A DNA stretch of 64,000 bases. It comes from a virus. The notes beneath the pieces were generated by a model that saw only the letters and a list, made by a program, of their open reading frames with translations, ran no database searches and had not been told where the DNA came from. The translations under genes and the position numbers were made by a program. Below, in pieces: positions 4,456 to 22,702 of the stretch. Every line of letters begins with the position of its first letter. The first letter of the stretch is position 1. The DNA is taken from positions 21,399-85,398 of the IMG/VR virus record IMGVR_UViG_3300035034_000924; one strand, 5' to 3'.

Positions 4456-4469
4456 TGCAAACGTTTGCA
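4456..4469. repeat. Dispersed palindrome, perfect copy
   Basis: TGCAAACGTTTGCA, intergenic. Confidence 0.9.
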
Positions 4470-5486: not shown

Positions 5487-6476
5487 GTGGTCACGAAGAG
5501 AGTAGACGCAAGCCAGAGAGTACCGTTCGACTCTGGGTCCCGTGAGCCGATAGCAGAAGACAAGCTTGCATTAGAGCTTGTCCCTAGCTTCGACGATCCG
5601 GGTGCGTCTAGGCCTCCTTGGCAGACCGTGCGGCTGTTCCCTGCATTGAACGGGGTGAATGTAGAAGCTTCCAGAGGTGATGTCGAATACACCGGAACTT
5701 CCGGTCAGCTAAGCCGATCAGAGTTCGTGGAGTTTAACGGCAGCCGGACTTCTTCTGTTCAGTACCCCATCGACGGCGGGAGCATACAGCCAGTAGTAAA
5801 GTTCGCCTACGATCTGGACGGTAACGAGATAGGTGCGAATTTCCTTAGCTTCGTCGCATACAACAACCAAAAAGAGATTGTCTGTAATAGGGAGTTTGTC
5901 GGGGCAGTACAGATAGACTACGTGTCGTCTTACAAGATCTACCGATACCAGCCAGAAGACGGCGTCATCTACAGCCCCACGGGCCAACTACTGTTCGCTA
6001 ACTACGGGACGATACTCGCCTTCAAGGATCAGCAATTTGCTACGCTGGAGATACAGCCACCTACCTTGAACTTCGATCAGTCGTCTTTCAAGAAAGAGCT
6101 GTATCGCGTGGTCTCCGTGATTCAAGTCAACGAAAACGGGCCATGGGAAAAGATAGAAGATTTCGATACAGGATCTTCATGGCCTGACGGGAATGCTCCT
6201 GCAGATGGGGATAGCCTTTTTGAGTACGAGCGGGTGCATGAGATAGGCTACGTGTCCACTTTCCACAGGGGATTCGTAAACTACGAAACAAGGTCTATTG
6301 CTTTCGAGCAAGGGCCTGCTAGTGGCGACTACGTACCCGACACGCTGGAAGCACAATTCAAGTCACCTTCTGATTTCCAATCGGACTTCCTCGACGCTTA
6401 CAACCAGATCAGTATCGACAGTGCTATAGCGGGCATTAGAGATAGGTGGGGATCTGGCATAACCATAACGGAATAG
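5487..6476 (+). CDS. Putative tail structural protein
   Basis: 329-aa ORF tightly packed in the tail operon. Confidence 0.55.
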   Translation: MVTKRVDASQRVPFDSGSREPIAEDKLALELVPSFDDPGASRPPWQTVRLFPALNGVNVEASRGDVEYTGTSGQLSRSEFVEFNGSRTSSVQYPIDGGSIQPVVKFAYDLDGNEIGANFLSFVAYNNQKEIVCNREFVGAVQIDYVSSYKIYRYQPEDGVIYSPTGQLLFANYGTILAFKDQQFATLEIQPPTLNFDQSSFKKELYRVVSVIQVNENGPWEKIEDFDTGSSWPDGNAPADGDSLFEYERVHEIGYVSTFHRGFVNYETRSIAFEQGPASGDYVPDTLEAQFKSPSDFQSDFLDAYNQISIDSAIAGIRDRWGSGITITE

Positions 6477-6480
6477 TGTC

Positions 6481-8304
6481 ATGGCTATCGCCAAAAGCAC
6501 ACCTAACCATCAGTTTGGTCGAGTACTTAAATTCATACTGGGTACAGTCACAGGGCTATTCAACTGCACGACAGAAGACTCAGGCGGGCCGTATAAGATC
6601 GTGTACGACGCAGCCGAAGATGAGTACCTAGTCACAGAGTCATCACCTCCTGATGCTTCTCTAGGGGAGTACGAGAACGCCACCCAGACTAACCCACCAC
6701 CCTACAACGCTTACTGGCAGGGTGCGTATGTAGAAGGGCAGCCGACTAAGTATGTAGGTTACAACGGTCCGATCACTGGGCACTTCCACTCAAGGGAGTT
6801 ACCCAACAACGCCAAGCAGTCTGTGGTGCTAAACGGCAAAGCCTACGACGTAGGGGTCACTGTCAATGGCGCGGGTATCTGTACGGTAAGTGAAGAGACC
6901 GCACCATCCTCCGGCGAGTTCGTTGATGTAGACTACCTGATCGTCGCTACGCACTCCGCAGGAGATGACGATATCGCCCTGCAGTTTTCTAAGAAAAAAG
7001 TATCCGAGGTAAAAGCAGCCAGCTTCTCTGGGCTGACGAGCGGGGATGTATTCTACGAACACTACGCGCCTAACGTCACAACCTCGCAGAGCGCCATTAA
7101 CTTCTACTGGAGAGCGGCAGAGAATATGCACCCCGTATCCATTAGCGGGGATGGGCTTAAAGCAGTGTACTACGACGGAAACGGGCAAGGGTCTAACTTC
7201 CACACCTACCACGAGTATACTTTTGATGCGGACCTAGGTGGCGGGTCTGTAGTGACGACTACCTCTTCTCAGCCAGGCAAAACAACCACCGGAACAAACA
7301 CCACTAGCGGCGGTGGATCGAGCAAGACAAAATCCAACGTGGAAACAGAAGACGTTACGGTAAACGACGTGGTTATCGCTGCAGCGTACGTTAACGACAC
7401 GATTAAGTTCATGAAGTACAGCATCACAATGGAGTCTAGCTATTCCTCTGTCACAACAGTTACTGACGCCACTGCAAACGGCAGCGGGTCTTTCACTTAC
7501 GACCTAGAGTACCCTACCGAAACCGACAGTTTCTCTGGTTCGTACTCCTTTAACACTATGGATACGCCGACAAACCCGCCCACAGGTACTACCACCATAA
7601 ACAGCGACCACTTTGCGCTGGCAGGTAACAACCTAGGCAGGGTGCCGATAAACACATACATAGTGTTTATAGATTTCTATGCAGACGTCTACCTTCGCAA
7701 CTACCGGTTCTCGGAAGGGGGCACTGCAAGCCCCGGCGTAGTTGGCGGGTCCATGACTTTCTATCTGGAACCAAAATACTCCTTCAGCAGAAAGGACGGT
7801 ACGCCTGTCACTAACCAAGGGGTCCAGAGATTCGCTGGAGGTACTAGCCTATCCGAAGGCACAAACGTAACTGGACAAGATGGCTACTTAACCGACAATC
7901 TGCTACCCGCATTTTCGATTAAATGGGTATCCCCCAGTGGGATAAACGGAACCACGCCTTATAGCTTTACGCAAAGCTATGCGTCCGGCCCTAGATTTGC
8001 GACCATGGAGGAGTTCTACGGTGCAAACGAAGAGGCTAACAGAAAGTACCTAATGAACCACAGAAACCCCGTAGACGGTGCTGTACTTTCTAGATGGAAG
8101 CCACAGTTCTTAGCGGGGAACTACCGGACGCCCCGAGGTAGGTTTGTGCAAAGGAATACTTTCCCCGTGGGGGCGGTAGGTATGAGTCAGTACTTTGTAT
8201 CTGACGGGTTATGGAACGACGTACTTACGCCTCCCCTGCTCAGCACTGTAGACGAAGAGACGGATATCATCGACAATAGCAATATATCATTAGTGGTGCC
8301 CTAA
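6481..8304 (+). CDS. Putative tail/virion protein (Thr/Ser/Gly-rich)
   Basis: 607-aa beta-rich ORF in the tail operon. Confidence 0.55.
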   Translation: MAIAKSTPNHQFGRVLKFILGTVTGLFNCTTEDSGGPYKIVYDAAEDEYLVTESSPPDASLGEYENATQTNPPPYNAYWQGAYVEGQPTKYVGYNGPITGHFHSRELPNNAKQSVVLNGKAYDVGVTVNGAGICTVSEETAPSSGEFVDVDYLIVATHSAGDDDIALQFSKKKVSEVKAASFSGLTSGDVFYEHYAPNVTTSQSAINFYWRAAENMHPVSISGDGLKAVYYDGNGQGSNFHTYHEYTFDADLGGGSVVTTTSSQPGKTTTGTNTTSGGGSSKTKSNVETEDVTVNDVVIAAAYVNDTIKFMKYSITMESSYSSVTTVTDATANGSGSFTYDLEYPTETDSFSGSYSFNTMDTPTNPPTGTTTINSDHFALAGNNLGRVPINTYIVFIDFYADVYLRNYRFSEGGTASPGVVGGSMTFYLEPKYSFSRKDGTPVTNQGVQRFAGGTSLSEGTNVTGQDGYLTDNLLPAFSIKWVSPSGINGTTPYSFTQSYASGPRFATMEEFYGANEEANRKYLMNHRNPVDGAVLSRWKPQFLAGNYRTPRGRFVQRNTFPVGAVGMSQYFVSDGLWNDVLTPPLLSTVDEETDIIDNSNISLVVP

Positions 8305-8305
8305 G

Positions 8306-10042
8306 ATGGCGATAGTACAACAAGAACACATAGCCGTACTGCCGTACTCTGTTCATAGGGAGTTTATAGCGCCGTACGATATCAAGGCAGCCAAAGCGTT
8401 CTCTTTCGACATTGTGTATGCGTTCCTAGCTTATGACGTTGTACAGAAAGAGCACGTTGCCCTGTTCAAAAACGATTCATCTGAATTCAGCCACGACAGC
8501 GTTTGGTCACTGCAGGACAGCGTGTCTTTCGAGCATGTCATAGAATACAACCTGCTAGAAGCAGACCTTATCAAGACAGAGCACGTTGCAACATATCGAA
8601 TGGATACTTCCGCGTTCGAGCACGTATCGACTTGGAGCATTTTGCAAACGCTTGCAAAAGAGCACGTTAGTGAATGGTCTCTAGAAAACTTTGAAAAAAT
8701 CCGACAGGAGCACGAGGCTGTTTACGGGATGGCGGGCTCTGCGTTCGAACACGTATCGGCTTGGGATCTACTGGGTTCCTTATCTAAAGAGCATGTATCG
8801 GTTTACTCGCTAACGTCTCCGTTGGCAGTAGAGTTTGTTGCAGTGTACGAAATGAAGGATCACGATGTAATCAGCAGGGAGCATGGCGCGGTATACAACA
8901 TCTATGATCCGATAGTGATCGACGTCACCGGACAGCCTGTGATTACTTTGGGGGACGGCACAATAGTCGATATCATAGATGCTGACGTGTCTAAGTCAGA
9001 AGACCAGATACACTGGACTTGCACTATTACGCTAGGTGACGTATCAGACTACCAGCTGTTCGAGCAAGATACTCCGTTCGAGTTAGATCTGTTTGGCGAG
9101 AAGTACGATTTCATCGTTGACTCTAAAGAGCTGAACCGAGGCGAAGGTACAGTTAATCGCAACGCTCTAGTAAACGGGGTCTCACCTACTGCCTTAGCTG
9201 ACTCGCCCAGAGCCAGCCAGAGAGAGTACACGTTCGCTACCAGCAAGACTTTGATTACTATGATGCAGGAAATCCTGTCAGGGGTTGGTATTACCCTTAA
9301 TCAGGTAGGTACGATCACTGATGGTCTTATTCCGTTCGAGAGGGCAGGGGTACGTGCTGCTAGTCCGTTGGAAGTTGTATTCAACATGGCAACCAAAGCG
9401 GGCCTAGTGATCTACGCACCCAAGCAAGACCCCGGTGTCCTTAATATCCGAAGGAAGTATCTGTACGATACGCACACGGGGTACACCGCAGGCAACACCT
9501 CAAGCTCAGTGACCGACATGGATAACATCATGCGTTTGGTCGAGCAATTCGTGCCTTCTCGCCTAGTTGATCGGGTCAGGATCTTCGATAGCCAAGGCAC
9601 GTTCAAGGACAAGATAACATTCGAACTGGACACTGATAACGCAGGCAATAGATTAGCCAAGCAGGGCACTGCAAGGATCTACCCGTCCCCAGCAAGAGAG
9701 GCGCTAGACAACCCCGTACTGGACAACGTGAATAAACCAGAAATAAAGCTGGAGTTTTTGGGTCAAGAGACGGAGACTATCGAGGGCGAAGAGCTGACGT
9801 TTAACGCAGGCATAGCCTCGGTAGACTTCCCTATAAACAGTATGGTGTCCATAGATTGGCAAGGAGTCTCGCTGGTAGGGGTGACGTATGAGCCCGGTTC
9901 GTCTACAATCCGAGGAACGGACACAAGCACTAACGGCGGGTACGCGGTAGCCATAGTGAGCTACACAACCATTTCAAGAAAGTACAGGGTAATAGCGAAC
10001 ACGGAAGAGGCCATAGACCTGCTTCTGAGCTATCAGGATTAG
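8306..10042 (+). CDS. Tail-tip hub-like protein with N-terminal EH-x3-[YW] repeats
   Basis: 578 aa; about 14 tandem 14-17-aa repeats (e.g. AFEHVSTWSIL, AKEHVSEWSLE) followed by a hub-like beta region. Confidence 0.55.
   Translation: MAIVQQEHIAVLPYSVHREFIAPYDIKAAKAFSFDIVYAFLAYDVVQKEHVALFKNDSSEFSHDSVWSLQDSVSFEHVIEYNLLEADLIKTEHVATYRMDTSAFEHVSTWSILQTLAKEHVSEWSLENFEKIRQEHEAVYGMAGSAFEHVSAWDLLGSLSKEHVSVYSLTSPLAVEFVAVYEMKDHDVISREHGAVYNIYDPIVIDVTGQPVITLGDGTIVDIIDADVSKSEDQIHWTCTITLGDVSDYQLFEQDTPFELDLFGEKYDFIVDSKELNRGEGTVNRNALVNGVSPTALADSPRASQREYTFATSKTLITMMQEILSGVGITLNQVGTITDGLIPFERAGVRAASPLEVVFNMATKAGLVIYAPKQDPGVLNIRRKYLYDTHTGYTAGNTSSSVTDMDNIMRLVEQFVPSRLVDRVRIFDSQGTFKDKITFELDTDNAGNRLAKQGTARIYPSPAREALDNPVLDNVNKPEIKLEFLGQETETIEGEELTFNAGIASVDFPINSMVSIDWQGVSLVGVTYEPGSSTIRGTDTSTNGGYAVAIVSYTTISRKYRVIANTEEAIDLLLSYQD
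8643..8656. repeat. Dispersed palindrome, 1 mismatch
   Basis: TGCAAACGCTTGCA, in CDS (LQTLA). Confidence 0.85.
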
Positions 10043-11822: not shown

Positions 11823-12464
11823 GTGCCACAAGACTACATACAGGTTATAACGGACGAAGACTCAACGGGCGCTTACCTGCTGAACAGAGAGCAGCCCGTC
11901 GTATCTATTGCTGAAGAGAGCTTCGCAGCATTGCTATCGGAAGAACGCAATGAAGTCCTGTCCTCGCTAGGCGACAGTAACCAAGTGTCTTCCGTCTCTG
12001 AGACTATCCTTGTCACGCCGTTGGAAGTAGTAGATAATGCCGAAATATTGACAGGAGTTGAATATCTGTCAGTAGAGTTTGTAGAAGAGATTTACGAAGT
12101 CCACCTAGCGGATGCTTTTGTAGGAACGGGTGGCGGGGAAGCGGGAGAAGCCGAGCTTCCAAAAATCTCGGAACTTATACCTGATGGCCAGAACGCTGTA
12201 GTAGACAGTATTCCGGTCGAGCAGTTGAACGGAGTCAAGTGGCTAGTTACCTTGACAACCGCAGTCAACGACAAAAGGGTATTCGAAGTAAGCGCCTCAT
12301 GGAAGGGCACTGAAGCAAACTACACGGTGTACGGTATCAATGGAGATGCCATCGGATATAGCGTATCAGTGGATATTGCTATCGCCAGCAATAATATTGA
12401 GCTTGCCATATCGAACACTAACGGAAGTGCACTAACGGCAGACGTGGTTCGTATCTCGATGTAG
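11823..12464 (+). CDS. Putative virion structural protein
   Basis: 213 aa, acidic N-half and beta-sandwich-like C-half. Confidence 0.5.
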   Translation: MPQDYIQVITDEDSTGAYLLNREQPVVSIAEESFAALLSEERNEVLSSLGDSNQVSSVSETILVTPLEVVDNAEILTGVEYLSVEFVEEIYEVHLADAFVGTGGGEAGEAELPKISELIPDGQNAVVDSIPVEQLNGVKWLVTLTTAVNDKRVFEVSASWKGTEANYTVYGINGDAIGYSVSVDIAIASNNIELAISNTNGSALTADVVRISM

Positions 12465-15800: not shown

Positions 15801-16921
15801 GTAATGACCAAATAGACATAGTGGCTGGCGGCATTGTTAAGTCAAGGTGGTCCTCGGGAATCAGCACTATTTATGGCTACACCCAATTCAACAGATCGGC
15901 TGGCGTCAACGACGCTCAGATAGAGCTATTCGGCGGGGATGCCGATAGCGGCGCGGCGCTGACGTTTCACAGAACGAGTGTTAAGATCTGGTATCTAGGT
16001 ATGCGAGGGGACTCCGCAGCGTTTACCCTCAGAAACGATAGTGCAGGTGGCAGTTTAGTTTTTGGTGTAAACAGTGCAGGTTCTTTTGATTTCCATACTG
16101 GCGTTAAACTTAGTGACGGGGTGCCAACAACTTCCGGTGACCTTGCCATGGGTAACTCCTATGTTTCCTCCTCTATACGTATCGGTTCGTTCGGCTCTTA
16201 CATAGGCCGGGACGCGGGCACTGGTGCTATCCGCTACCGCTCAGCACAGAACTCCCACCACTTCACTGGTACAAATGTAATATTGGACGAACATTTAATA
16301 GTACAGGGCGGGAAGTTCATTTACTTGGACGGAGGAAGCGATACATACATAAGCCAGCTTAGTGGCAATGAAACCAGCGTAGTTTCTGGCGGGACAGAGG
16401 GGCTTAGGGTGGGAAACAACTTCACCTATACAAGAAACTTCCGGCCTTTCGTTAATAATCTGTATGCCATGGGTGATGCTTCCTTCGCGTGGACGGTAGT
16501 TTACGCAACTAACGGAGCCATACAGCCTTCCGACCTGCGCCTAAAGAACGTAACTAAAAGGTTAACGCCAGAGGAAGCACTTTCCTTTGTCAGAGACACA
16601 GAGTCGATAGAGTACTACTGGAAGGACGATGCAAGTAAGGTGTATAGGCACGGTTTCGGTGCGCAGGAAATCTACGTCTTGCTTAAAAAGCACGGTATGA
16701 ACCCCGACAAAAACGGCCTAGTAAGCCACGATGTATCGTCAGACAAGTGGTCCATGGGCTACTCGGAAATGGTGTCTATAAATTCTGCAGCTATCCGAGG
16801 AGTGGCTTCTATGGTTGACAAAGTGGTGGTGTCTATCGGTTCGCATAACAAAAAAATAAAAGCTCTGGAAGAAAAAGTCGATACGTTAGAAGAAGAAGTT
16901 CGTATACTTAAGGCGGCGTAA
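12845..16921 (+). CDS. Long tail fibre / receptor-binding protein with C-terminal peptidase S74 intramolecular chaperone
   Basis: 1358 aa; LVGSAPADLNTIEEIASALGND motif; internal repeats; C-terminal PSDLRLKN...HGFGAQE...Y plus coiled coil (autocleaving chaperone). Confidence 0.88.
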   Translation: MADKYPIKAVSASGDATGLSEFEEGDAVPIDAGGTGAVTAESGLANLGGATESFVDAAVAAAVAMLVGSAPADLNTIEEIASALGNDPDILTNFLSTANVVNNLTSSDTEAPLSAAMGKALKDQLDTFNPLPNFTTNGSFSTLNPTLLFHETDATTDNGKWRIAIDNEQFNLDVVSDDGFTSEYFLRAERSSANVTDVTTNGEWYFNEDITALSNISASSLEITNLALFKSTVQLDENAYGTMVGSSTAGFVIEGAGSVTDFVLRNSLSQDVLWVPEGGLQINVKSDIFSEGSVIFGDVFNTYATFEGDGIEGVLLQGFGDTNDFMVRNRSGVDTLWLDSDTTEFTFAGDLSFSAMNLKVGGVSVLSSSSSEASFFSGVLEVTPTSVQINEGVGLDFYNGNGVIEWSDAFDTYGSISGGSAGMVIQGFGFLGDIILRNSAATDVMLVPTGTTDVEFKGDVYLESALYHDSAEAIVYGNGNEVYRVNNSGLVITSQIQLNDSRFIRFENQDGFTISGYIGLINASNELAIQHDTELSVTIGAAETFTVNGSLVTSQVDVSIDTGDLYLNSPDGHIWFTETDAAADNGKWDFRYYGGKFEFRTVNDAVTGASTIMDVSRTGIGVDLISFFAETTFSDHITLGNNKAIFIKNSESQSYPVIQRFGDEVYIDSYGNSAGNGAIILRTRNGSGAVATALQLNAESQQAFFGGIISSSINNAGAVTLGAASDIQPGMRIFNAATNFYMGLNTSAGTAFSGSTANYAYVGTSSNGLEFATANVVRAKFDTLARLHLFTELSLDSNKVIALEGQGSDTYFYGAGTNNIYFVTGGANVLRLDNNQDIAAYGRITIPHTDGYYFGNGYIGEPDVNWGWLLKPDTASGGAANGGILNTAGVAIMLFYDANKSVTLSTSSTLHSGFRVDNGTNLLCEILGFSGANDSGGVRLYSGGVPRTDLYSDQPSYFYHGIRIPVTSKVFLDSDAGMDSYIYASGNDQIDIVAGGIVKSRWSSGISTIYGYTQFNRSAGVNDAQIELFGGDADSGAALTFHRTSVKIWYLGMRGDSAAFTLRNDSAGGSLVFGVNSAGSFDFHTGVKLSDGVPTTSGDLAMGNSYVSSSIRIGSFGSYIGRDAGTGAIRYRSAQNSHHFTGTNVILDEHLIVQGGKFIYLDGGSDTYISQLSGNETSVVSGGTEGLRVGNNFTYTRNFRPFVNNLYAMGDASFAWTVVYATNGAIQPSDLRLKNVTKRLTPEEALSFVRDTESIEYYWKDDASKVYRHGFGAQEIYVLLKKHGMNPDKNGLVSHDVSSDKWSMGYSEMVSINSAAIRGVASMVDKVVVSIGSHNKKIKALEEKVDTLEEEVRILKAA

Positions 16922-17490
16922 TGGAGATTAACTTAGGCACCCTCTTTAAACAGATTGGACCCGTCGCTGCGGTACTACTGGGCATGCTGTTCATGTACTT
17001 TAACCCGACGCAAGAAAGCCAGTTCAATGAAAATCTGATAAGCAGGCTGAGCAACGCAGAGAATAAAGCGGATCAATGCTTGAACGAAAGCATAGTAATA
17101 AAAAACCAGCTGAAGGATATGCAGTTCCGGTTCACTATCATGCGCGGGTCACAGGAATCACTACCATGGCCTAGCTGGATGAAAGACGGCAGCGGTAAGG
17201 TCCTGTTTGCTAACAGCGCCTACGAAAAAACTTACTTAAAACCTTTGGGGTACGAGTTAAGTGACTACGTAGGATTCAGGGACGAAGCTGTGTTTTCCGA
17301 TATTACTGCACAGTCGTTCAGGGCCAACGACCTGCTAGTGTTCGAGTCAGGGATTATCATTGAGGTCACTGAAATGGTGGACTCTCCGGGGGGAGAAGCC
17401 CAGCCAGTACAGGTCTACAAGTACCCCATTAAGGTAAGAGACGTGGTTGTAGCAGTAGGCGGGATGACCATACCAGCGAAGGTTCTATAG
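16921..17490 (+). CDS. Membrane-anchored PAS-domain protein
   Basis: N-terminal TM helix, coiled coil, then LPWPSWMKDGSGKVLFANSAY...YVG...D...F...AQSFRANDLLV...VYKYPI...VVAVGGM (PAS_4/PAC-type pattern). Confidence 0.8.
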   Translation: MEINLGTLFKQIGPVAAVLLGMLFMYFNPTQESQFNENLISRLSNAENKADQCLNESIVIKNQLKDMQFRFTIMRGSQESLPWPSWMKDGSGKVLFANSAYEKTYLKPLGYELSDYVGFRDEAVFSDITAQSFRANDLLVFESGIIIEVTEMVDSPGGEAQPVQVYKYPIKVRDVVVAVGGMTIPAKVL

Positions 17491-17492
17491 TT

Positions 17493-17810
17493 ATGATGGG
17501 AATGTGGCCAGTTGAGCAAGCGATTTGGGTAATTGCAAACGTTTGCATAGGTGTATCGTACACTTTGGTGTTGGCCCACTACAGCATCCACACTGTACCT
17601 ATCTTACTAAACCAAGGTTTCGTATATTTTTGCGGGATGGGACACTTCGGTATGGTCATATGGATGGCGCTACTACCACATAACTACCTCGTGTTTCTGA
17701 CGGTTTGTATCTTGGACAGTATGACTGCATTAGTCAGTGTAGCTTCTGCGTGGTACGCTTGGCGAAGACGAGAACGAAAAGGGGAAGCCAATGCTGTGCA
17801 TAGAAATTAA
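17493..17810 (+). CDS. Three-TM protein resembling the ethylene-receptor (ETR1-type) ligand-binding domain
   Basis: ANVCIGVSY / GFVYFCGMGHF / DSMTALVSVASA align by eye to ETR1 SDFFIAIAY / AFIVLCGATHL / KVLTAVVSCATA. Confidence 0.65.
   Translation: MMGMWPVEQAIWVIANVCIGVSYTLVLAHYSIHTVPILLNQGFVYFCGMGHFGMVIWMALLPHNYLVFLTVCILDSMTALVSVASAWYAWRRRERKGEANAVHRN
17534..17547. repeat. Dispersed palindrome, perfect copy
   Basis: TGCAAACGTTTGCA, in CDS (ANVC). Confidence 0.9.
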
Positions 17811-18192
17811 ATCGAAACGTAAGATCTTTGGTAACAACGGTATTGCATGGCTTTGGCCTTTCATATTCGTCTGGGGGAGTCACCCGCAATACATTCGGGT
17901 AAGAGAGAACGAGACGGGCCACAACCTTCAAGCACCAGAGACGTGGGTAATAGGGTTCCCGTTCGCGGCATACGCAACCTATGTGCTGGATTACCCCATA
18001 TGGTGGATGTTTTTGTTGACCTACTGCTCGTTTGCTATAATCTACGGGATCATGTCTTTAGTGGCTAAACTGCAGGGCGGGGACAGCTACATAGATAACG
18101 TAATGGAACAGGATTCTAGGCAGTGGGACGATGGCAACCTAGGCAGACGTCCTAGGTTCTACTGGCTCAAACTTTTATTTAGAGGAAAATAG
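17791..18192 (+). CDS. Hypothetical membrane protein (degenerate HExxH-like segment NETGH)
   Basis: 133 aa with hydrophobic helices; overlaps the previous gene; GGGG RBS. Confidence 0.5.
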   Translation: MLCIEIKSKRKIFGNNGIAWLWPFIFVWGSHPQYIRVRENETGHNLQAPETWVIGFPFAAYATYVLDYPIWWMFLLTYCSFAIIYGIMSLVAKLQGGDSYIDNVMEQDSRQWDDGNLGRRPRFYWLKLLFRGK

Positions 18193-18193
18193 C

Positions 18194-18532
18194 ATGGACA
18201 ACTATCCTAAACTCAAGCAAGCGGGTAACGCGACACTGAGTAAAGTACCGGAAAGTAAGCGCCTCCGTAGCGGGGAAGTACGTGACCCTGAGACAAAAGA
18301 GATACTACAAAAAGCGGAGTACGATATTATACCTGCCCGAGTGGTACTCTCAGTCCCTGCTATCGCAGACGACGGCTCTGTCACTACCAAAGAGCATCCT
18401 GTTGACGAAGGTAGGCTTCGTGCTGAACTAACAAGGATTGCTTCCCAGATCGAAGCTTTAAACGCCCAGAAGGCATCCCACGAACTAATGCTGGCCGACA
18501 TCGCTGCCTTAGAAGAAGAACAACCAGAGTAA
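18194..18532 (+). CDS. Hypothetical protein with C-terminal coiled coil
   Basis: 112 aa, GAGG RBS. Confidence 0.6.
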   Translation: MDNYPKLKQAGNATLSKVPESKRLRSGEVRDPETKEILQKAEYDIIPARVVLSVPAIADDGSVTTKEHPVDEGRLRAELTRIASQIEALNAQKASHELMLADIAALEEEQPE

Positions 18533-18560
18533 TACAACCACGGTGTACTAGGAGAAATAC

Positions 18561-18944
18561 ATGAAACGAGTGATGTTAAAGAAGTTCCCTTCAGGGAGAG
18601 AGAACGATGACTACAAAGCCCTGATGATAAGCATACTGCAATTCCCTAAAAACGGGGAAAAGACAGACGTTGCTGAGATGCGGAAGGTCATACCTATTAT
18701 CGACAAGTTCGAGGCTATTAAATCAGTACCTATCCAAGGTACGAAGATCGACCTTGAAGATGCCGAGTGGGAAGAACTCAAAGAGCGGGTAAAACCGGAC
18801 TGCAAGTTCCCTTTCCCTAACAACAACAGGGAGCTGCTGAAGTTCATCGAGGCAATCGAAGACGCTGAAGAACTCGAAGTCAAGAAGACCGAAGTGAAAG
18901 GCGCAGCCAGAAGCAAGCGACCAAAGCCCGAACCCAAGAAGTAG
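18561..18944 (+). CDS. Hypothetical protein
   Basis: 127 aa, AGGAG RBS. Confidence 0.6.
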   Translation: MKRVMLKKFPSGRENDDYKALMISILQFPKNGEKTDVAEMRKVIPIIDKFEAIKSVPIQGTKIDLEDAEWEELKERVKPDCKFPFPNNNRELLKFIEAIEDAEELEVKKTEVKGAARSKRPKPEPKK

Positions 18945-19095
18945 CCTGTTCGAACTTACCTTGCCCTTCCCTCTGCGGTTAGGTAAGATGGGAGCTGTTC
19001 AGTTGGTAGCTGGACTCTTTCATGCGAAGCGAACCCAAGTCCTGTCCTTTACGCCAACCAAGGGGCGGGGCTTGGCAAGCTACTAGGAGGCGACA

Positions 19096-19557
19096 GTGGA
19101 TATCACGTACTCGATGTATCGTTACAACTCAGGCGATGATTCGACCCTAGGTTTTCTTACTCTCTACAGACAGCTGCTTTGCTATACTTGTGAAGACGAG
19201 TATCGAGAGCACAAGGTCATGCACGAAACCCGCATCCCTGCGGGCAGATACGAAATCAAGCTAAGGCCTGCCGGAGGTATACACCCCCGATACGCCAAAA
19301 AATTCCCAGATATTCATAAAGGCATGTTGTGGCTACAAGACGTGCCAAACTTCACATGGGTTTATATCCATGTAGGTAACACGGACGATCATTCGTCTGG
19401 TTGCATTCTACTAGGTGCCAGCCCTGTTCCCGACAAAAAGGATGGCGGCGGGTCAGTAGCCAACTCAGTAGATGCGTACGAAAAGGTGTACCCCATGATG
19501 GCCGATGCGATAGAGAATGGTGATCGCGTATACATCGAGATAGTGGATGTTGCATGA
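19096..19557 (+). CDS. Putative endolysin (DUF5675-type, YkuD/L,D-transpeptidase-like)
   Basis: STLG-x-L...CYTCED...TRIPAGRYEI...L-x-DVPNF-x-x-VYIHVGNT...S-x-GCILLG motif; AGGAGG RBS; precedes holin and spanins. Confidence 0.8.
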   Translation: MDITYSMYRYNSGDDSTLGFLTLYRQLLCYTCEDEYREHKVMHETRIPAGRYEIKLRPAGGIHPRYAKKFPDIHKGMLWLQDVPNFTWVYIHVGNTDDHSSGCILLGASPVPDKKDGGGSVANSVDAYEKVYPMMADAIENGDRVYIEIVDVA

Positions 19558-19567
19558 TGGAGTACGT

Positions 19568-19849
19568 ATGGCTGACGATGGGTATAACGACGGGGTCATT
19601 GACCTAAAAGACGTGGAAAGAATAGGGACTAAAGTATCTAACTTCATGGTAGAGCACAGGGTACTCCCTAGGCTCTTTGTCTGCGTATTCGGGGCCATAT
19701 TCATAGACATGAATTTTTGGCTGCAAGAGATGGTGGAAACAAGCAAGCTAGAAGGCGGTTACTTTGTCGAGGTTTACGTAGGAGCCATGGTAGGTGGTTT
19801 TGTAGCCATGGTAACCGGATACGCCAATAGCGGCGAGAGGAAGGAATAG
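19568..19849 (+). CDS. Putative holin
   Basis: Two hydrophobic helices, charged C-terminus, located between endolysin and spanins. Confidence 0.6.
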   Translation: MADDGYNDGVIDLKDVERIGTKVSNFMVEHRVLPRLFVCVFGAIFIDMNFWLQEMVETSKLEGGYFVEVYVGAMVGGFVAMVTGYANSGERKE

Positions 19850-19850
19850 C

Positions 19851-20297
19851 ATGGTACGCATTTTAGCAGGAATTTCTGTCACTCTACTTTTGTGTTCACT
19901 GGCTCTAGCCACGGTACTCAATCGCAGCATAGAACGGGCCGCAGATGTAGAAGGTAAGCTCGAAGTCGCGGAGGCTATTAGTAAAGAAAATAAGCGTACT
20001 ATGAACATGATGCAAAGTGCCCGGATCGACGCAATCCAGTTACTAAAAGAGACCGAGCATAGGAACGAGAACATTCGCCAGATATCGGAAACGAGATTGC
20101 TGGAGATACAAAAGCTAAGGGAGACCGAAGACCGTGAAGCACGTAAACTACCTTTTGCGCGTGGCAACGCTAGCCATGATCGTATTGTTGAGTACCTCAT
20201 GCGCTTCGAGGGAAGTGCAGATGGATATCCACTTCATACCAGTGATGCCGGAGCCAGTAATACTGGAACGCCCAACCCCACCCAAGGTGGCGAGTAG
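19851..20297 (+). CDS. Inner-membrane spanin (Rz-like)
   Basis: N-terminal TM anchor followed by coiled coil; overlapped by a lipoprotein gene. Confidence 0.7.
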   Translation: MVRILAGISVTLLLCSLALATVLNRSIERAADVEGKLEVAEAISKENKRTMNMMQSARIDAIQLLKETEHRNENIRQISETRLLEIQKLRETEDREARKLPFARGNASHDRIVEYLMRFEGSADGYPLHTSDAGASNTGTPNPTQGGE

Positions 20298-20649
20298 CTA
20301 CCCCGCCCCGATAGGCATCACCAGCACAGAGGTCCGATACTACCTCGACGTCTGTGATCGCTACAACGACCCGCAGGAAGATCCTGAGTCCATACTAGAA
20401 GAAACCCAGCTGGCGTATTACGATGCATGCGATTGGCTTATATACGGCCATCCGGTACAGCAGAGGCTGACTATCGAAACCATACTCAGCAAGATGGCTG
20501 ACTACAGCGAACGTATGCGGGCTCACGTAGACCACCTAGAAAAGGTTATACGCATCCAATACGAGAACAGCCTAGAGACACGCAAAGCTGTTGAAGGAGC
20601 GGAAATGTCTAAAACTGAAGAAAATAGAAAGTTCTTAGGTTTGTTCTAG
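20134..20649 (+). CDS. Outer-membrane spanin lipoprotein (Rz1-like)
   Basis: Signal peptide with lipobox-like LLSTSC, Pro-rich segment, overlapping the i-spanin in another frame. Confidence 0.65.
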   Translation: MKHVNYLLRVATLAMIVLLSTSCASREVQMDIHFIPVMPEPVILERPTPPKVASSYPAPIGITSTEVRYYLDVCDRYNDPQEDPESILEETQLAYYDACDWLIYGHPVQQRLTIETILSKMADYSERMRAHVDHLEKVIRIQYENSLETRKAVEGAEMSKTEENRKFLGLF

Positions 20650-20932: not shown

Positions 20933-22702
20933 ATGCTAAAGAATTTAATAACAGACGCCGATTCGGAGCGCAGCTTTCGCACACGGTTGCTCAACACTCT
21001 GGCCTCAGGGGCGGGGCTTATACACGTACGTAGCTCGGAGGTAATGAGAACGTTGGCCAGTATCCGCCGTAACATTATCTTAGAGGGGCACGAATACAAC
21101 GAGTGGGATATCTGCAACGGCACTTGCCCTTACAGCACGGAAGACCTTCACACTCTTAATAAGGATGGAGACAAGAATCCGCAGATACCAGTTCTGCTCG
21201 ACACCATTTGGGCTAAACACATTTGGTGGATCAAAGAAGCCAGTGACAGCCAGCGCGACTCGTACTATGTATACGTAATCACGCAAGCCGCCAGCATGGT
21301 CAACAACAACCCTTATGCTACGCAGCGTTTTCTGGAGCTAAACAACGGGCTGCCAGAATCTACGGTCAGGGTAATAATGTTGACGGAAGACATCCCGTTG
21401 CCTGAGAGTTGCGCCAGTAACTTCATTACACTCGACTTCGACAGACCCGGCCATGGAGAGCTTCTGCATCGGTTAGAAACCAACCTGCATGATTACGCTA
21501 CGCCGGAATCGTTAGATGTAGAAGAAGAAGACTACGAGCGAATCGCAGTAGCTGCCTCTGGTATGACGATTGGCGAATTCGACTTCGCGGTATCCAGCGC
21601 CATCGTTAACAAGTTGTACGAAGAGTCTGAAGGCGATGAAAGCCCAGTGGTTACTACTAAGGATCTTATTGAAGGCGTTCATATGGGTAAGACCGAGGCC
21701 ATCAAAAAGAACGACATCCTAGAGCTGCTACACGTCGGGGAGATGAACGAGGTCGGCGGTATGCACAACGCGAAGAAATGGGTGGAGATGCGTTCGTACA
21801 CCTACACTCCTGAGTTCTTGAAGTTCGGCGGGCAACCACCAAAAGGTATGGTATCGGTCGGTGTCCCCGGCACAGGTAAATCTTTGCTGGCTAAAGCCGT
21901 CGCAAGCGAGTTCGGTATCCCCTGCGTACGTATGGACTTCGGCTCAATCTTCAATGCCTTGATCGGTTCATCCGAAGAGCGGATACGCAAAGCTTTGAAG
22001 TTAACGGAAGCAATGTCTCCCTGCGTTTTGTTCGTAGACGAAATTGACAAGGCCTTGGGTGGCCTAGGCGGGTCAGGAGACTCCGGTACATCTATGCGGG
22101 TATTCGGGACCTTCTTGACATGGTTACAGGAACACAAGTCTCCGGTGTTCACTATCGTTACTGCCAACAATGTAACGGGCCTTCCCCCTGAGCTATTACG
22201 GCGCGGTCGCTTCGATGCGATCTTTGCCACCGTTTTACCAAACCAGTACGAGCGCGAAGATGTGCTAGCCATCCACCTGCAAAAGCGGGGTCATAGCATC
22301 GAAGACTTCAGCGATTATGAAATTGCCGTGTTCCTTAAGCAGACCGATAAGTTCGTCCCTGCGGAAATCGAAGCGATTGTTCAGGATGGTCTCGTACTGG
22401 CCTTTAACCGAGCGGTAGCCGATGAGCAGGAACCCGAGCTGCTTATGGATGACCTACTCGAAGCCATCGCTGCAGTAGTACCGCTGTCCAAGTCACATAA
22501 GAGCGCTATTCAAGCCATGGTCACATGGGCAGAGGATAATGCTATGCCCGCTTCCCTTAGTGAGAAACAGTACGAAGAGCTGAGGGGCGCTCCTAAGGGC
22601 ACTAAACCTAGGGGACAGGCAAAGGCCCGCCCCCGTCGCAAAACCACCCGTACGAGCAATATAACGAGCATCAAGCGGACACGTAAAAAGGAAGAGGAGT
22701 AG
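20933..22702 (+). CDS. AAA+ ATPase, Ycf46-like
   Basis: Walker A GVPGTGKS, Walker B LFVDEIDK, TANN...LPPELLRRGRFD arginine finger; degenerate N-terminal AAA module; AAGGAG RBS before ATG 20933. Confidence 0.9.
   Translation: MLKNLITDADSERSFRTRLLNTLASGAGLIHVRSSEVMRTLASIRRNIILEGHEYNEWDICNGTCPYSTEDLHTLNKDGDKNPQIPVLLDTIWAKHIWWIKEASDSQRDSYYVYVITQAASMVNNNPYATQRFLELNNGLPESTVRVIMLTEDIPLPESCASNFITLDFDRPGHGELLHRLETNLHDYATPESLDVEEEDYERIAVAASGMTIGEFDFAVSSAIVNKLYEESEGDESPVVTTKDLIEGVHMGKTEAIKKNDILELLHVGEMNEVGGMHNAKKWVEMRSYTYTPEFLKFGGQPPKGMVSVGVPGTGKSLLAKAVASEFGIPCVRMDFGSIFNALIGSSEERIRKALKLTEAMSPCVLFVDEIDKALGGLGGSGDSGTSMRVFGTFLTWLQEHKSPVFTIVTANNVTGLPPELLRRGRFDAIFATVLPNQYEREDVLAIHLQKRGHSIEDFSDYEIAVFLKQTDKFVPAEIEAIVQDGLVLAFNRAVADEQEPELLMDDLLEAIAAVVPLSKSHKSAIQAMVTWAEDNAMPASLSEKQYEELRGAPKGTKPRGQAKARPRRKTTRTSNITSIKRTRKKEEE

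Follow-up and report, generated by a model that had tools for sequence, protein, structure and literature searches.

A conserved phage gene pair encoding a PAS protein and a probable, strongly diverged stand-alone relative of the ethylene-binding domain

What might a membrane domain resembling that of the ethylene receptors be doing in a virus, detached from any kinase? The question is raised by two adjacent genes in a stretch of 64,000 nucleotides (here called the window), which is part of the 85,398-bp IMG/VR virus record IMGVR_UViG_3300035034_000924 (positions 21,399 to 85,398; CheckV completeness of 89). The ethylene-binding domain (EBD; Pfam family ETR1_N, PF25487) is known from the receptor kinases of plants, cyanobacteria, and proteobacteria, where it serves as the input module; in the window, a candidate homologue is an autonomous phage protein with a separate PAS partner. 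The original prediction, made from the letters of the window, described a protein with a transmembrane segment, a coiled coil, and a PAS domain, encoded by open reading frame (ORF) A, followed 2 nt later by a 105-aa three-helix membrane protein, ORF B, carrying the strings IGVSY, FVYFCGMGH, and TALVSVASA. The coordinates, the strings, and the helices were all confirmed. It remained to be decided whether ORF B is truly related to the EBD, whether the two genes belong together, and what such a pair could contribute to a phage.

ORF B contained three hydrophobic segments (residues ~10-28, 43-61, and 66-84), a basic C-terminal tail with a net charge of +4, and no Lys or Arg before helix 1, a charge distribution that would place the N terminus out and the C terminus in. 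Three helices were also present in the AF2 model (mean pLDDT of 73.9). The best Pfam match of ORF B was ETR1_N (E = 0.025; 15.3 bits; profile positions 23 to 89 of 97). A full HMMER pass over 1.84 billion representatives yielded 13 matches, including six small proteins of 94 to 112 aa and six long repeat proteins. The six small proteins, together with ORF B, make up what is referred to below as the ORF B family (n = 7). The long proteins, with 3 to 16 matched stretches (P0005, P0006, P0007, P0010, P0012, and P0015), were left out of the family alignment; four of them (P0005, P0007, P0010, and P0015) were rejected as relatives, being repeat proteins that matched only around the C-G-x-G string or the tail. 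Within the family alignment, Trp12, Tyr23, Phe43, Cys47, Gly48, Gly50, His51, and Thr78 were invariant, and five of the seven members matched ETR1_N at an E value of 1 or below (best E = 3.1e-6).

The evidence that carries the relationship came from comparing the family as a whole with genuine bacterial domains. Of 401 Pseudomonadota genomes, 26 had a PF25487 match above the cut-off, in most cases within open frames of 401 to 1,253 aa, apart from one 28.8-bit fragment in a 48-aa frame, and 20 ETR1_N domains from Pseudomonadota genomes were aligned as the bona fide set. When the ORF B family profile was aligned with this set by hhalign, the match stood at 96.4% (E = 1.4e-9; score of 55.7) over 91 columns that span all three helices. 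Among 41 controls, the reversed profile scored 9.2 and none of 40 column shuffles scored above 20.6. The search was also informative in the opposite direction. The ORF B family profile matched 19 of 401 Pseudomonadales genomes; one match was a prophage copy of the phage gene itself, and the other 18 lay in frames of 194 to 903 aa. All 10 of these Pseudomonadales matches that were translated displayed the canonical SD..Y..IP, CGxTH, and KxxTA motifs, and one fell at the same place as a PF25487 match. A further bridge was provided by Molly1_65 (QQO97550.1), a 289-aa hypothetical protein of Maribacter phage Molly_1 (Mollyvirus; MT732451.1), which matched ETR1_N above the cut-off (60.9 bits) and was matched by ORF B in BLASTP (E = 1e-6) and by the ORF B family profile at 95.8%. 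Searching 50,697 phage records by tblastn with a bacterial domain recovered eight records, all from Maribacter phages Molly and Colly, some of which are filed twice.

Beyond these relatives, little else was recovered. A scan with a four-sequence EBD alignment gave 42 stretches, of which two passed a tblastn check against ORF B, namely the contig already known and phage Molly. Nothing was found for the region, for ORF B, or for its relative P0013 by blastn or tblastn against the 50,697 phage records, nor for ORF B in a scan of viral contigs, and a word-indexed protein search with ORF B returned only itself. The family-alignment search gave no longer, fused relatives of ORF B, which is weak evidence. 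On the strength of the profile comparison, its controls, the reciprocal search, and the Molly1_65 bridge, the homology of ORF B to the ETR1-type EBD that the original prediction had proposed is very probable. By its sequence, ORF B is best classified as a genuine, if strongly diverged, stand-alone member of the ETR1_N superfamily. The domain family is known, and the ORF B family is a variant of it from a setting not described before; it is also rare, with 7 members in 1.84 billion representatives.

The divergence was not spread evenly over the domain, as became apparent from column counts over 7 phage-type and 20 canonical bacterial domains. Cys47 and His51 of ORF B aligned with the copper ligands Cys65 and His69 of ETR1, Asn16 aligned with Asp25, and Asp75 aligned with Lys91; the last column was equated with Lys91 as the site of the only near-invariant Lys of helix 3. 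Both copper ligands, the helix-1 Tyr, and the Phe before the Cys were present in 7/7 phage-type and 20/20 canonical domains, and the Ile62 column held Ile (five) or Val (two) in the phage-type domains versus Ile in all 20 canonical ones. Elsewhere, the two sets differed sharply. The Asp25 column held Asn in five phage-type domains, Ser in one, and Gly in one, versus Asp in 19 and Glu in one of the canonical domains; the helix-1 Pro (Pro36 column) was found in 0/7 versus 18/20; the Thr of CGxTH, present in 20/20 canonical domains, was Gly in 7/7 (giving CGxGH); and the helix-3 Lys, present in 19 canonical domains and replaced by Leu in one, was Asp in six phage-type domains and Glu in one. The N-terminal HGxC motif, which serves covalent dimerisation and has its Cys in 20/20 canonical domains, was absent from the phage-type domains, which start at helix 1 with no Cys before it. 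The Ile35 column of the phage-type family held Val, Phe, or Ile. At the other end, ORF B stops 21 residues past helix 3, leaving no output domain in the same chain. Since Molly1_65 has the same Asn, CGxGH, and Asp, these features appear to be a common phage-type signature and not the noise of one small family. Seven residues (Asp25, Tyr32, Ile35, Pro36, Ile62, Cys65, and His69) are reportedly required for ethylene binding.

Published work on ETR1 gives these substitutions a possible meaning. The EBD is reported to require a Cu(I) cofactor, coordinated by Cys65 and His69 (PMC10266040, PMC13261662). Asp25 is described as helping to bind copper and ethylene, and a bridge from it to Lys91 of helix 3 has been proposed (PMC10266040). 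The same source describes D25N as a natural variant, found in 3.67% of 1,221 sequences, and reports that ETR1 D25N still signals with much lower affinity; elsewhere, the ethylene affinity of D25N is given as ~100-fold lower (PMC11971883). In one bacterial ETR1_N kinase (L026; G004:C21:14776-15063), the sole Glu for the helix-1 Asp and the sole Leu for the helix-3 Lys among the 20 canonical domains occurred together, a paired change that fits the reported Asp25-Lys91 coupling. In the phage-type domains, the helix-1 Asn together with the helix-3 carboxylate would amount to an inverted bridge, which may still supply an oxygen ligand near the Cys/His pair. Judged from these residues, metal binding by ORF B has slightly better than even chances. 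Classical high-affinity binding of ethylene to the ORF B family appears improbable, because Asp is replaced by Asn, Lys is replaced by Asp or Glu, and the helix-1 Pro is lost. The original prediction fared accordingly in its parts: the Cys/His pair, whose conservation among phage homologues it had singled out, was retained in 7/7, and its suggestion of ethylene or gas sensing was weakened by the Asn, the missing Pro, and the helix-3 Asp/Glu.

The substitution at Asn16 had also been linked to a repeated palindrome. The 14-bp palindrome TGCAAACGTTTGCA occurred at 21 sites in the window with two or fewer mismatches, against 0.13 expected; 10 of these copies were exact (e.g., at 4456, 17534, 24008, 29013, 32513, 43231, 52430, 55032, and 60979). 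The coincidence of the Asn codon with the palindrome was borne out, as an exact copy covers codons Ile14 to Ile19 of ORF B. Because Asn is found in five of the seven family members, it is not peculiar to this palindrome copy. Copies of the palindrome were placed roughly every 2 to 4 kb, in coding as well as intergenic DNA.

The partner of ORF B was readily classified. ORF A is a PAS protein, matching Pfam PAS_4 (PF08448) with 26.7 bits (E = 6.8e-6) and passing the cut-off of 23.1. It had a single hydrophobic segment (residues ~8-27), and its AF2 model consisted of a helix at residues 5 to 27, a long helix at residues 29 to 76, and a PAS fold at residues ~79 to 180, with a pLDDT of 85 to 95 over residues 80 to 180. 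Foldseek matched the model to 326 PDB chains at an E value of 0.001 or below, and cytoplasmic-type PAS, LOV, heme-PAS, and FAD-PAS domains were among the matches listed. Judged by the charge distribution of ORF A, its PAS domain could be on either face of the membrane. Two homologues were known, P0003 (53% identity) and a protein at positions 9369 to 9995 of the prophage locus described below (35% identity; PAS_4 E = 8.5e-11). The PAS core of these three family members had no invariant His or Cys and thus no sign of a heme or LOV-type cofactor. Scans of viral and metagenome sequences with the PAS alignment returned only one contig, which was already known.

If the two genes form a unit, they should be expected to travel together, and the original prediction had called for a survey of phage genomes for the same pair. 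Three loci could be read for their neighbourhood: the window, IMGVR_UViG_3300032212_000005, and a prophage on CAWUFD020000015.1; the other four ORF B family members (P0008, P0009, P0013, and P0014) lie on contigs of 1 to 5.6 kb and were outside this count. The PAS and EBD genes were adjacent in 3/3 of these loci, with either a start-stop overlap or a 2-nt gap, across protein identities of 35 to 53%. On IMGVR_UViG_3300032212_000005, P0003, the only close relative of ORF A (53%), and P0004, the closest relative of ORF B (36%), were encoded side by side with a 4-nt overlap, directly after a 639-aa tail-fibre gene; a DUF5675 homologue followed ~3 kb after the pair. The third copy, P0011, was found on a 4.17-Mb contig of a Pseudomonadales metagenome-assembled genome (MAG), preceded by a 208-aa PAS_4 protein (E = 8.5e-11) with a 4-nt overlap, and the pair stood between two PHROG tail-protein genes. 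Since it is flanked by tail-protein genes on a contig of this size, P0011 appears to belong to a prophage. The region (594993-615328 of CAWUFD020000015.1) was prophage-like in other respects as well, with tail proteins of 1,596 aa and 806 aa (the latter matching phrog_376; E = 5e-102) and a gene resembling those of internal virion proteins. The prophage offers Pseudomonadales as a lead to the host of these phages. No ETR1_N match above the cut-off was found in the genome of this MAG.

Thus, the pair was located in the tail-gene region in 3/3 loci and directly after a fibre gene in two of them. In the tail/late region of this lake-water phage, ORF A and ORF B make up a module of two genes that is conserved, and it is quite likely that they act as a functional unit. 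In the window, the TAG of ORF A ends at 17490 and the ATG of ORF B starts at 17493, in a different frame; this start-stop spacing suggests that translation of the two is coupled.

The features around the pair are collected in Table 1. Almost all long ORFs of the 85,398-bp record lie on the + strand, and the pair is co-oriented with the late genes. Three sequencing runs from three studies of lake-water metagenomes matched the stretch; one may be where this DNA came from, and the other two contained fractions of 0.72 and 0.50 of the words sampled. The stop codon of the 1,358-aa tail-fibre gene overlaps the ATG with which ORF A begins. The fibre genes that precede the pair were very unequal in length between the window (1,358 aa) and IMGVR_UViG_3300032212_000005 (639 aa; 5916-7835), and a block of the form ...PHT.GYYFGNGY.GEPD.NWGWLLKPDTASGG... 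was well conserved between them. No convincing promoter or terminator of the pair's own was found, the promoter scan being at chance level and the terminator-like sites weak. Downstream, the last 20 nt of ORF B are shared with a 133-aa ORF, which had no Pfam, PHROG, NCBIfam, or PADLOC match and was not conserved after the pair in IMGVR_UViG_3300032212_000005 or the CAWUFD020000015.1 prophage. The 112-aa and 127-aa ORFs that follow matched no family at the thresholds used (Pfam, PHROG, NCBIfam, and PADLOC). Neither the pair nor the genes around it matched anything in PADLOC or NCBIfam. A 151-nt gap (18945-19095) precedes the lysin candidate and contains a stem-loop at 18997-19015; neither a tRNA (ARAGORN) nor an Rfam family was found in the gap or in or near the region.

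Table 1. Features of the window at and around the ORF A-ORF B pair
Feature	Coordinates	Strand	Basis or remark
Tail fibre/tail spike gene, 1358 aa	12845..16921	+	PHROG tail spike/tail fibre families, best E 2.2e-15
ORF A, 189 aa: membrane helix, long helix, PAS	16921..17490	+	Pfam PAS_4, hydropathy, AF2 model
ORF B, 105 aa: stand-alone three-helix membrane protein, probable diverged ETR1_N homologue	17493..17810	+	Family profile comparisons
Exact copy of TGCAAACGTTTGCA on ORF B codons Ile14-Ile19	17534..17547	.	Asn16 codon (17538-17540) inside
133-aa ORF with hydrophobic segment (~aa 70-91)	17791..18192	+	Hydropathy
Two soluble ORFs of 112 aa and 127 aa, between pair and lysis genes	18194..18944	+	
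DUF5675 protein, candidate peptidoglycan peptidase (endolysin)	19096..19557	+	Pfam DUF5675 E 2.7e-26; weak Tlde1_dom match
100-aa protein with two hydrophobic segments, candidate holin	19547..19849	+	Hydropathy; position between lysin and spanin candidates
Spanin-like overlapping pair	19851..20649	+	PHROG Rz-like spanin E 0.0069; hydropathy

The original prediction had placed the pair upstream of the lysis cassette. A lysin candidate does indeed lie downstream, and the placement proved loose, as it starts ~1.3 kb beyond ORF B, with three ORFs in between. The DUF5675 protein of the window and its counterpart on IMGVR_UViG_3300032212_000005 (11941-12417) each had a weak Tlde1_dom match and an S-x-G-C string. 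A 2026 preprint is reported to group a DUF5675 lysin structurally with C82 peptidases, and the weak Tlde1_dom matches agree with that grouping; on this basis the DUF5675 proteins are likely L,D-peptidase-type lysins. The 100-aa protein, a putative holin by hydropathy and position, matched a PHROG of unknown function (E = 5.1e-4). In the spanin-like pair, the first protein (19851-20297) has 148 aa and a membrane helix at its N terminus; the second, a 171-aa ORF that begins inside it in another frame (20134-20649), has a hydrophobic N terminus ending in Cys and may be a lipoprotein.

Our best explanation of the whole is that an EBD homologue and a PAS protein form a module with a local membrane output late in infection, a reading that we hold tentatively and would place somewhat short of an even chance. 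Under it, Cys47/His51 of ORF B would still bind a metal, probably Cu(I), the carboxylate of Asp75 in helix 3 replacing the lost helix-1 Asp, and ORF B would not be a high-affinity ethylene receptor. Because the phage has no phosphorelay, the output of ORF B would most simply be local to the inner membrane, and our guess is that it controls membrane permeability or energisation late in infection. ORF B might act as a gated cation leak or as a holin modulator that helps to set the time of lysis, with the PAS partner gating or tethering it. The permeability reading draws on the rice receptors OsERS1/2, which are reported to conduct cations (PMC13261662). The lead towards lysis arises because Molly1_65 occupies the usual holin position, its gene ending 4 nt before an Amidase_3 endolysin gene, and because ORF B has the topology of a small inner-membrane protein of three helices whose C-terminal tail is basic. 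That the pair helps to time lysis is, in our analysis, possible and rather more doubtful than the module itself; a link to lysis is possible by neighbourhood only, and the neighbourhood is loose in the ORF B subfamily.

Several observations weigh against this explanation. With regard to lysis, the pair stood beside a recognised lysin in 0/3 loci of the ORF B subfamily, the CAWUFD020000015.1 locus had no recognised lysin within its 20 kb, and the cassette of the window already has its own two-helix holin candidate. ORF B matched no holin family in Pfam or PHROG; a weak Phage_holin_3_6 match (E = 0.059) was seen in one of the seven family members. The channel activity of OsERS1/2 depends on N-terminal Cys4/Cys6, and these are absent from the ORF B family. 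With regard to homology, ORF B alone falls under the Pfam ETR1_N cut-off (15.3 versus 27 bits), and a six-frame PF25487 search of the virus record gave nothing at an E value of 1 or below. The family is also small, with six relatives in 1.84 billion representatives, four of them on short contigs. Finally, no solved chain was matched by the ORF B family in sequence, so that no fold-level check of the homology was possible. The structural comparison that the original prediction had proposed was consequently divided: the profile match stood, and Foldseek with the ORF B model gave nothing at an E value of 0.001 or below, only generic helical bundles. VIA-align over 48,161 chains placed the plant channel WeiTsing at the top (Z of 9.2; rmsd of 3.0; 85 aligned), on a par with soluble helical bundles of no relation and below the level that is meaningful for helical bundles.

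These structural results could be read to mean that ORF B has no kinship with the EBD at all and is a generic three-helix protein, SemiSWEET/PQ-loop-like or a class I holin, with chance motifs. SemiSWEET was the second row of the Foldseek output (E = 2.4), and three-helix matches in the ESM Atlas included PQ-loop clusters with a score of 0.89, a lead only, as it is below the 0.9 from which a match counts for more; the sub-threshold ETR1_N score of ORF B points the same way. A chance resemblance would nevertheless have to account for a profile-profile match over all three helices far above the 41 controls, for the retrieval of canonical EBD kinases by the reciprocal search, and for the bridge from the ORF B family to ETR1_N at 60.9 bits through Molly1_65. 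Moreover, neither ORF B nor its family had a PQ-loop or MtN3 Pfam match at an E value of 1 or below, and we regard this explanation as very improbable. Accepting the homology, one could suppose that the pair is a two-piece chemosensor, in which ORF B binds ethylene or another small unsaturated or gaseous ligand, or senses copper or redox state, and ORF A passes the signal on to a host partner, such as a histidine kinase or a chemoreceptor array, allowing the phage to adapt its own development or the physiology of its host. Input is the classical role of both domains, the combination of EBD, PAS, and kinase is proven in AzoEtr1 (PMC11819568), and of the 10 bacterial proteins scanned, 3 had a PAS domain after the EBD. 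The Cys, His, and Tyr are invariant in the ORF B family, and Asn at Asp25 is reported still to allow low-affinity, fast-release ethylene binding in ETR1 (PMC10266040). Set against this are the absence of the helix-1 Pro (7/7), the inversion of Lys91 to Asp/Glu (7/7), a PAS domain without the invariant His or Cys that marks a heme or LOV-type cofactor, and a gene order, PAS and then EBD with separate membrane helices, that is not a simple fission of an EBD-PAS protein. Nor did the whole 85,398-bp record contain a HATPase_c or Response_reg match at an E value of 0.01 or below, so that the claim of an EBD standing alone with no kinase held beyond the window, and the one known host genome offered no ETR1_N match above the cut-off as a partner. 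The suggestion in the original prediction that the pair interferes with host signalling lost ground for the latter reason, and a chemosensor seems rather unlikely.

The position of the pair invites a different proposal, that it blocks superinfection or DNA entry, or is other cargo protecting the infected cell or lysogen, with the EBD fold serving as a scaffold. Exclusion genes are often found beside receptor-binding genes. The pair lies in the tail-gene region in 3/3 loci, after the fibre gene in two and between tail genes in the prophage, and one copy is in an integrated prophage on the 4.17-Mb contig. A pure scaffold, however, would not need an invariant Cys-Gly-x-Gly-His, no PADLOC defence model matched the pair, and the two genes are co-oriented with the late genes with no convincing promoter or terminator of their own; we consider this proposal unlikely. 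The conserved site might instead be the whole point of the protein, with a small Cu(I)-binding membrane protein buffering, importing, or withholding copper and having no role in sensing or lysis. The copper ligands are indeed the best-conserved residues, and the EBD needs its Cu(I) cofactor at Cys65/His69. Such copper handling would leave the conserved PAS partner without a reason, a single site per 105-aa protein would make a poor buffer, and Pfam and PHROG scans of neighbouring ORFs revealed no copper chaperone, ATPase, or oxidase; it is therefore quite improbable.

Returning to a membrane module of EBD homologue and PAS protein, a bolder version of it can be formulated. The phage-type EBDs may constitute a distinct class of minimal copper-dependent gated cation leaks with an inverted Asn/Asp bridge, which would set off the holin by depolarising the membrane of the host, while the PAS protein would tie the gate to the energy or redox state of the dying cell and so provide a chemically tunable lysis clock. 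We regard this as speculative and unlikely. If it were true, EBDs of 94 to 112 residues would be the smallest natural targets for the structure of the ethylene-receptor copper site. Full-length ETR1 is reported to have resisted crystallisation (PMC12643061), and because of this and because no solved chain matches, small stand-alone EBDs could help structural work. A protein with a metal site, encoded among or close to the genes for lysis, would represent a new type of regulator of lysis, which is unproven. More generally, either the EBD has a kinase-independent output or its copper site has been put to use by phages to control the membrane, and the inversion at Asp25/Lys91 represents a natural experiment on the helix 1-helix 3 bridge model that was proposed in 2023 as tuning copper and ethylene binding (PMC10266040).

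How the phage proteins relate to systems already described can be stated in some detail. A literature search found no paper on phage-encoded EBDs; a 2019 paper in Gene reportedly concerns, by its title, ethylene-receptor kinases in megaviruses. Class I holins such as lambda S105 are late gene products of ~100 residues with three membrane helices and a basic cytoplasmic C-terminal tail. ORF B has the same size, the three helices, the basic tail, and the late phage gene, and thus meets the class I holin topology, which is common to many unrelated proteins. Unlike the S105-type holins, ORF B matched no holin family and does not adjoin the lysin gene, and the cassette of the window has a two-helix candidate of its own; to our knowledge, holins do not need an invariant Cys-x3-His site. 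The OsERS1/2 receptors provide a precedent for ion conduction with the same domain. Their current is reported to be enhanced by ethylene and to have needed Cys4/Cys6 and not Cys65, in full-length receptors expressed in oocytes (PMC13261662); it is the N-terminal cysteines that separate them from ORF B.

The closest viral likeness is Molly1_65, which shares with ORF B the Asn/CGxGH/Asp signature and a position downstream of tail genes. It differs from ORF B in a C-terminal extension of ~160 aa of unknown fold and in having no separate PAS gene, and hhalign of the PAS alignment against this C-terminal part gave no similarity. Among cellular proteins, the EBDs of Arabidopsis ETR1, Synechocystis SynEtr1, and Azospirillum AzoEtr1 share with the ORF B family the three helices, the helix-1 Tyr, the helix-2 motif F-I/V-x-x-C-G-x-x-H, and the helix-3 motif T-A-x-x-S, whereas the latter proteins are phage encoded, 94 to 112 aa long, and without GAF, PAS, or kinase domains in the chain. 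As had been predicted for bacteria, all 10 of the bacterial ETR1_N proteins scanned had fused cytoplasmic domains, with a kinase in eight and the other two cut at the end of the locus after PAS/GAF. AzoEtr1 of Azospirillum brasilense is a proven ethylene receptor of 525 aa with the architecture EBD-PAS-histidine kinase, and its first 130 residues alone are reported to bind ethylene (PMC11819568), which indicates that the three-helix part is autonomous. In AzoEtr1, the EBD, PAS domain, and kinase form one chain and a response regulator gene adjoins, whereas in the phage there are two chains, PAS and then EBD, each with its own membrane anchor and with no kinase or regulator. Like the phage pair, AzoEtr1 combines an EBD with a PAS domain.

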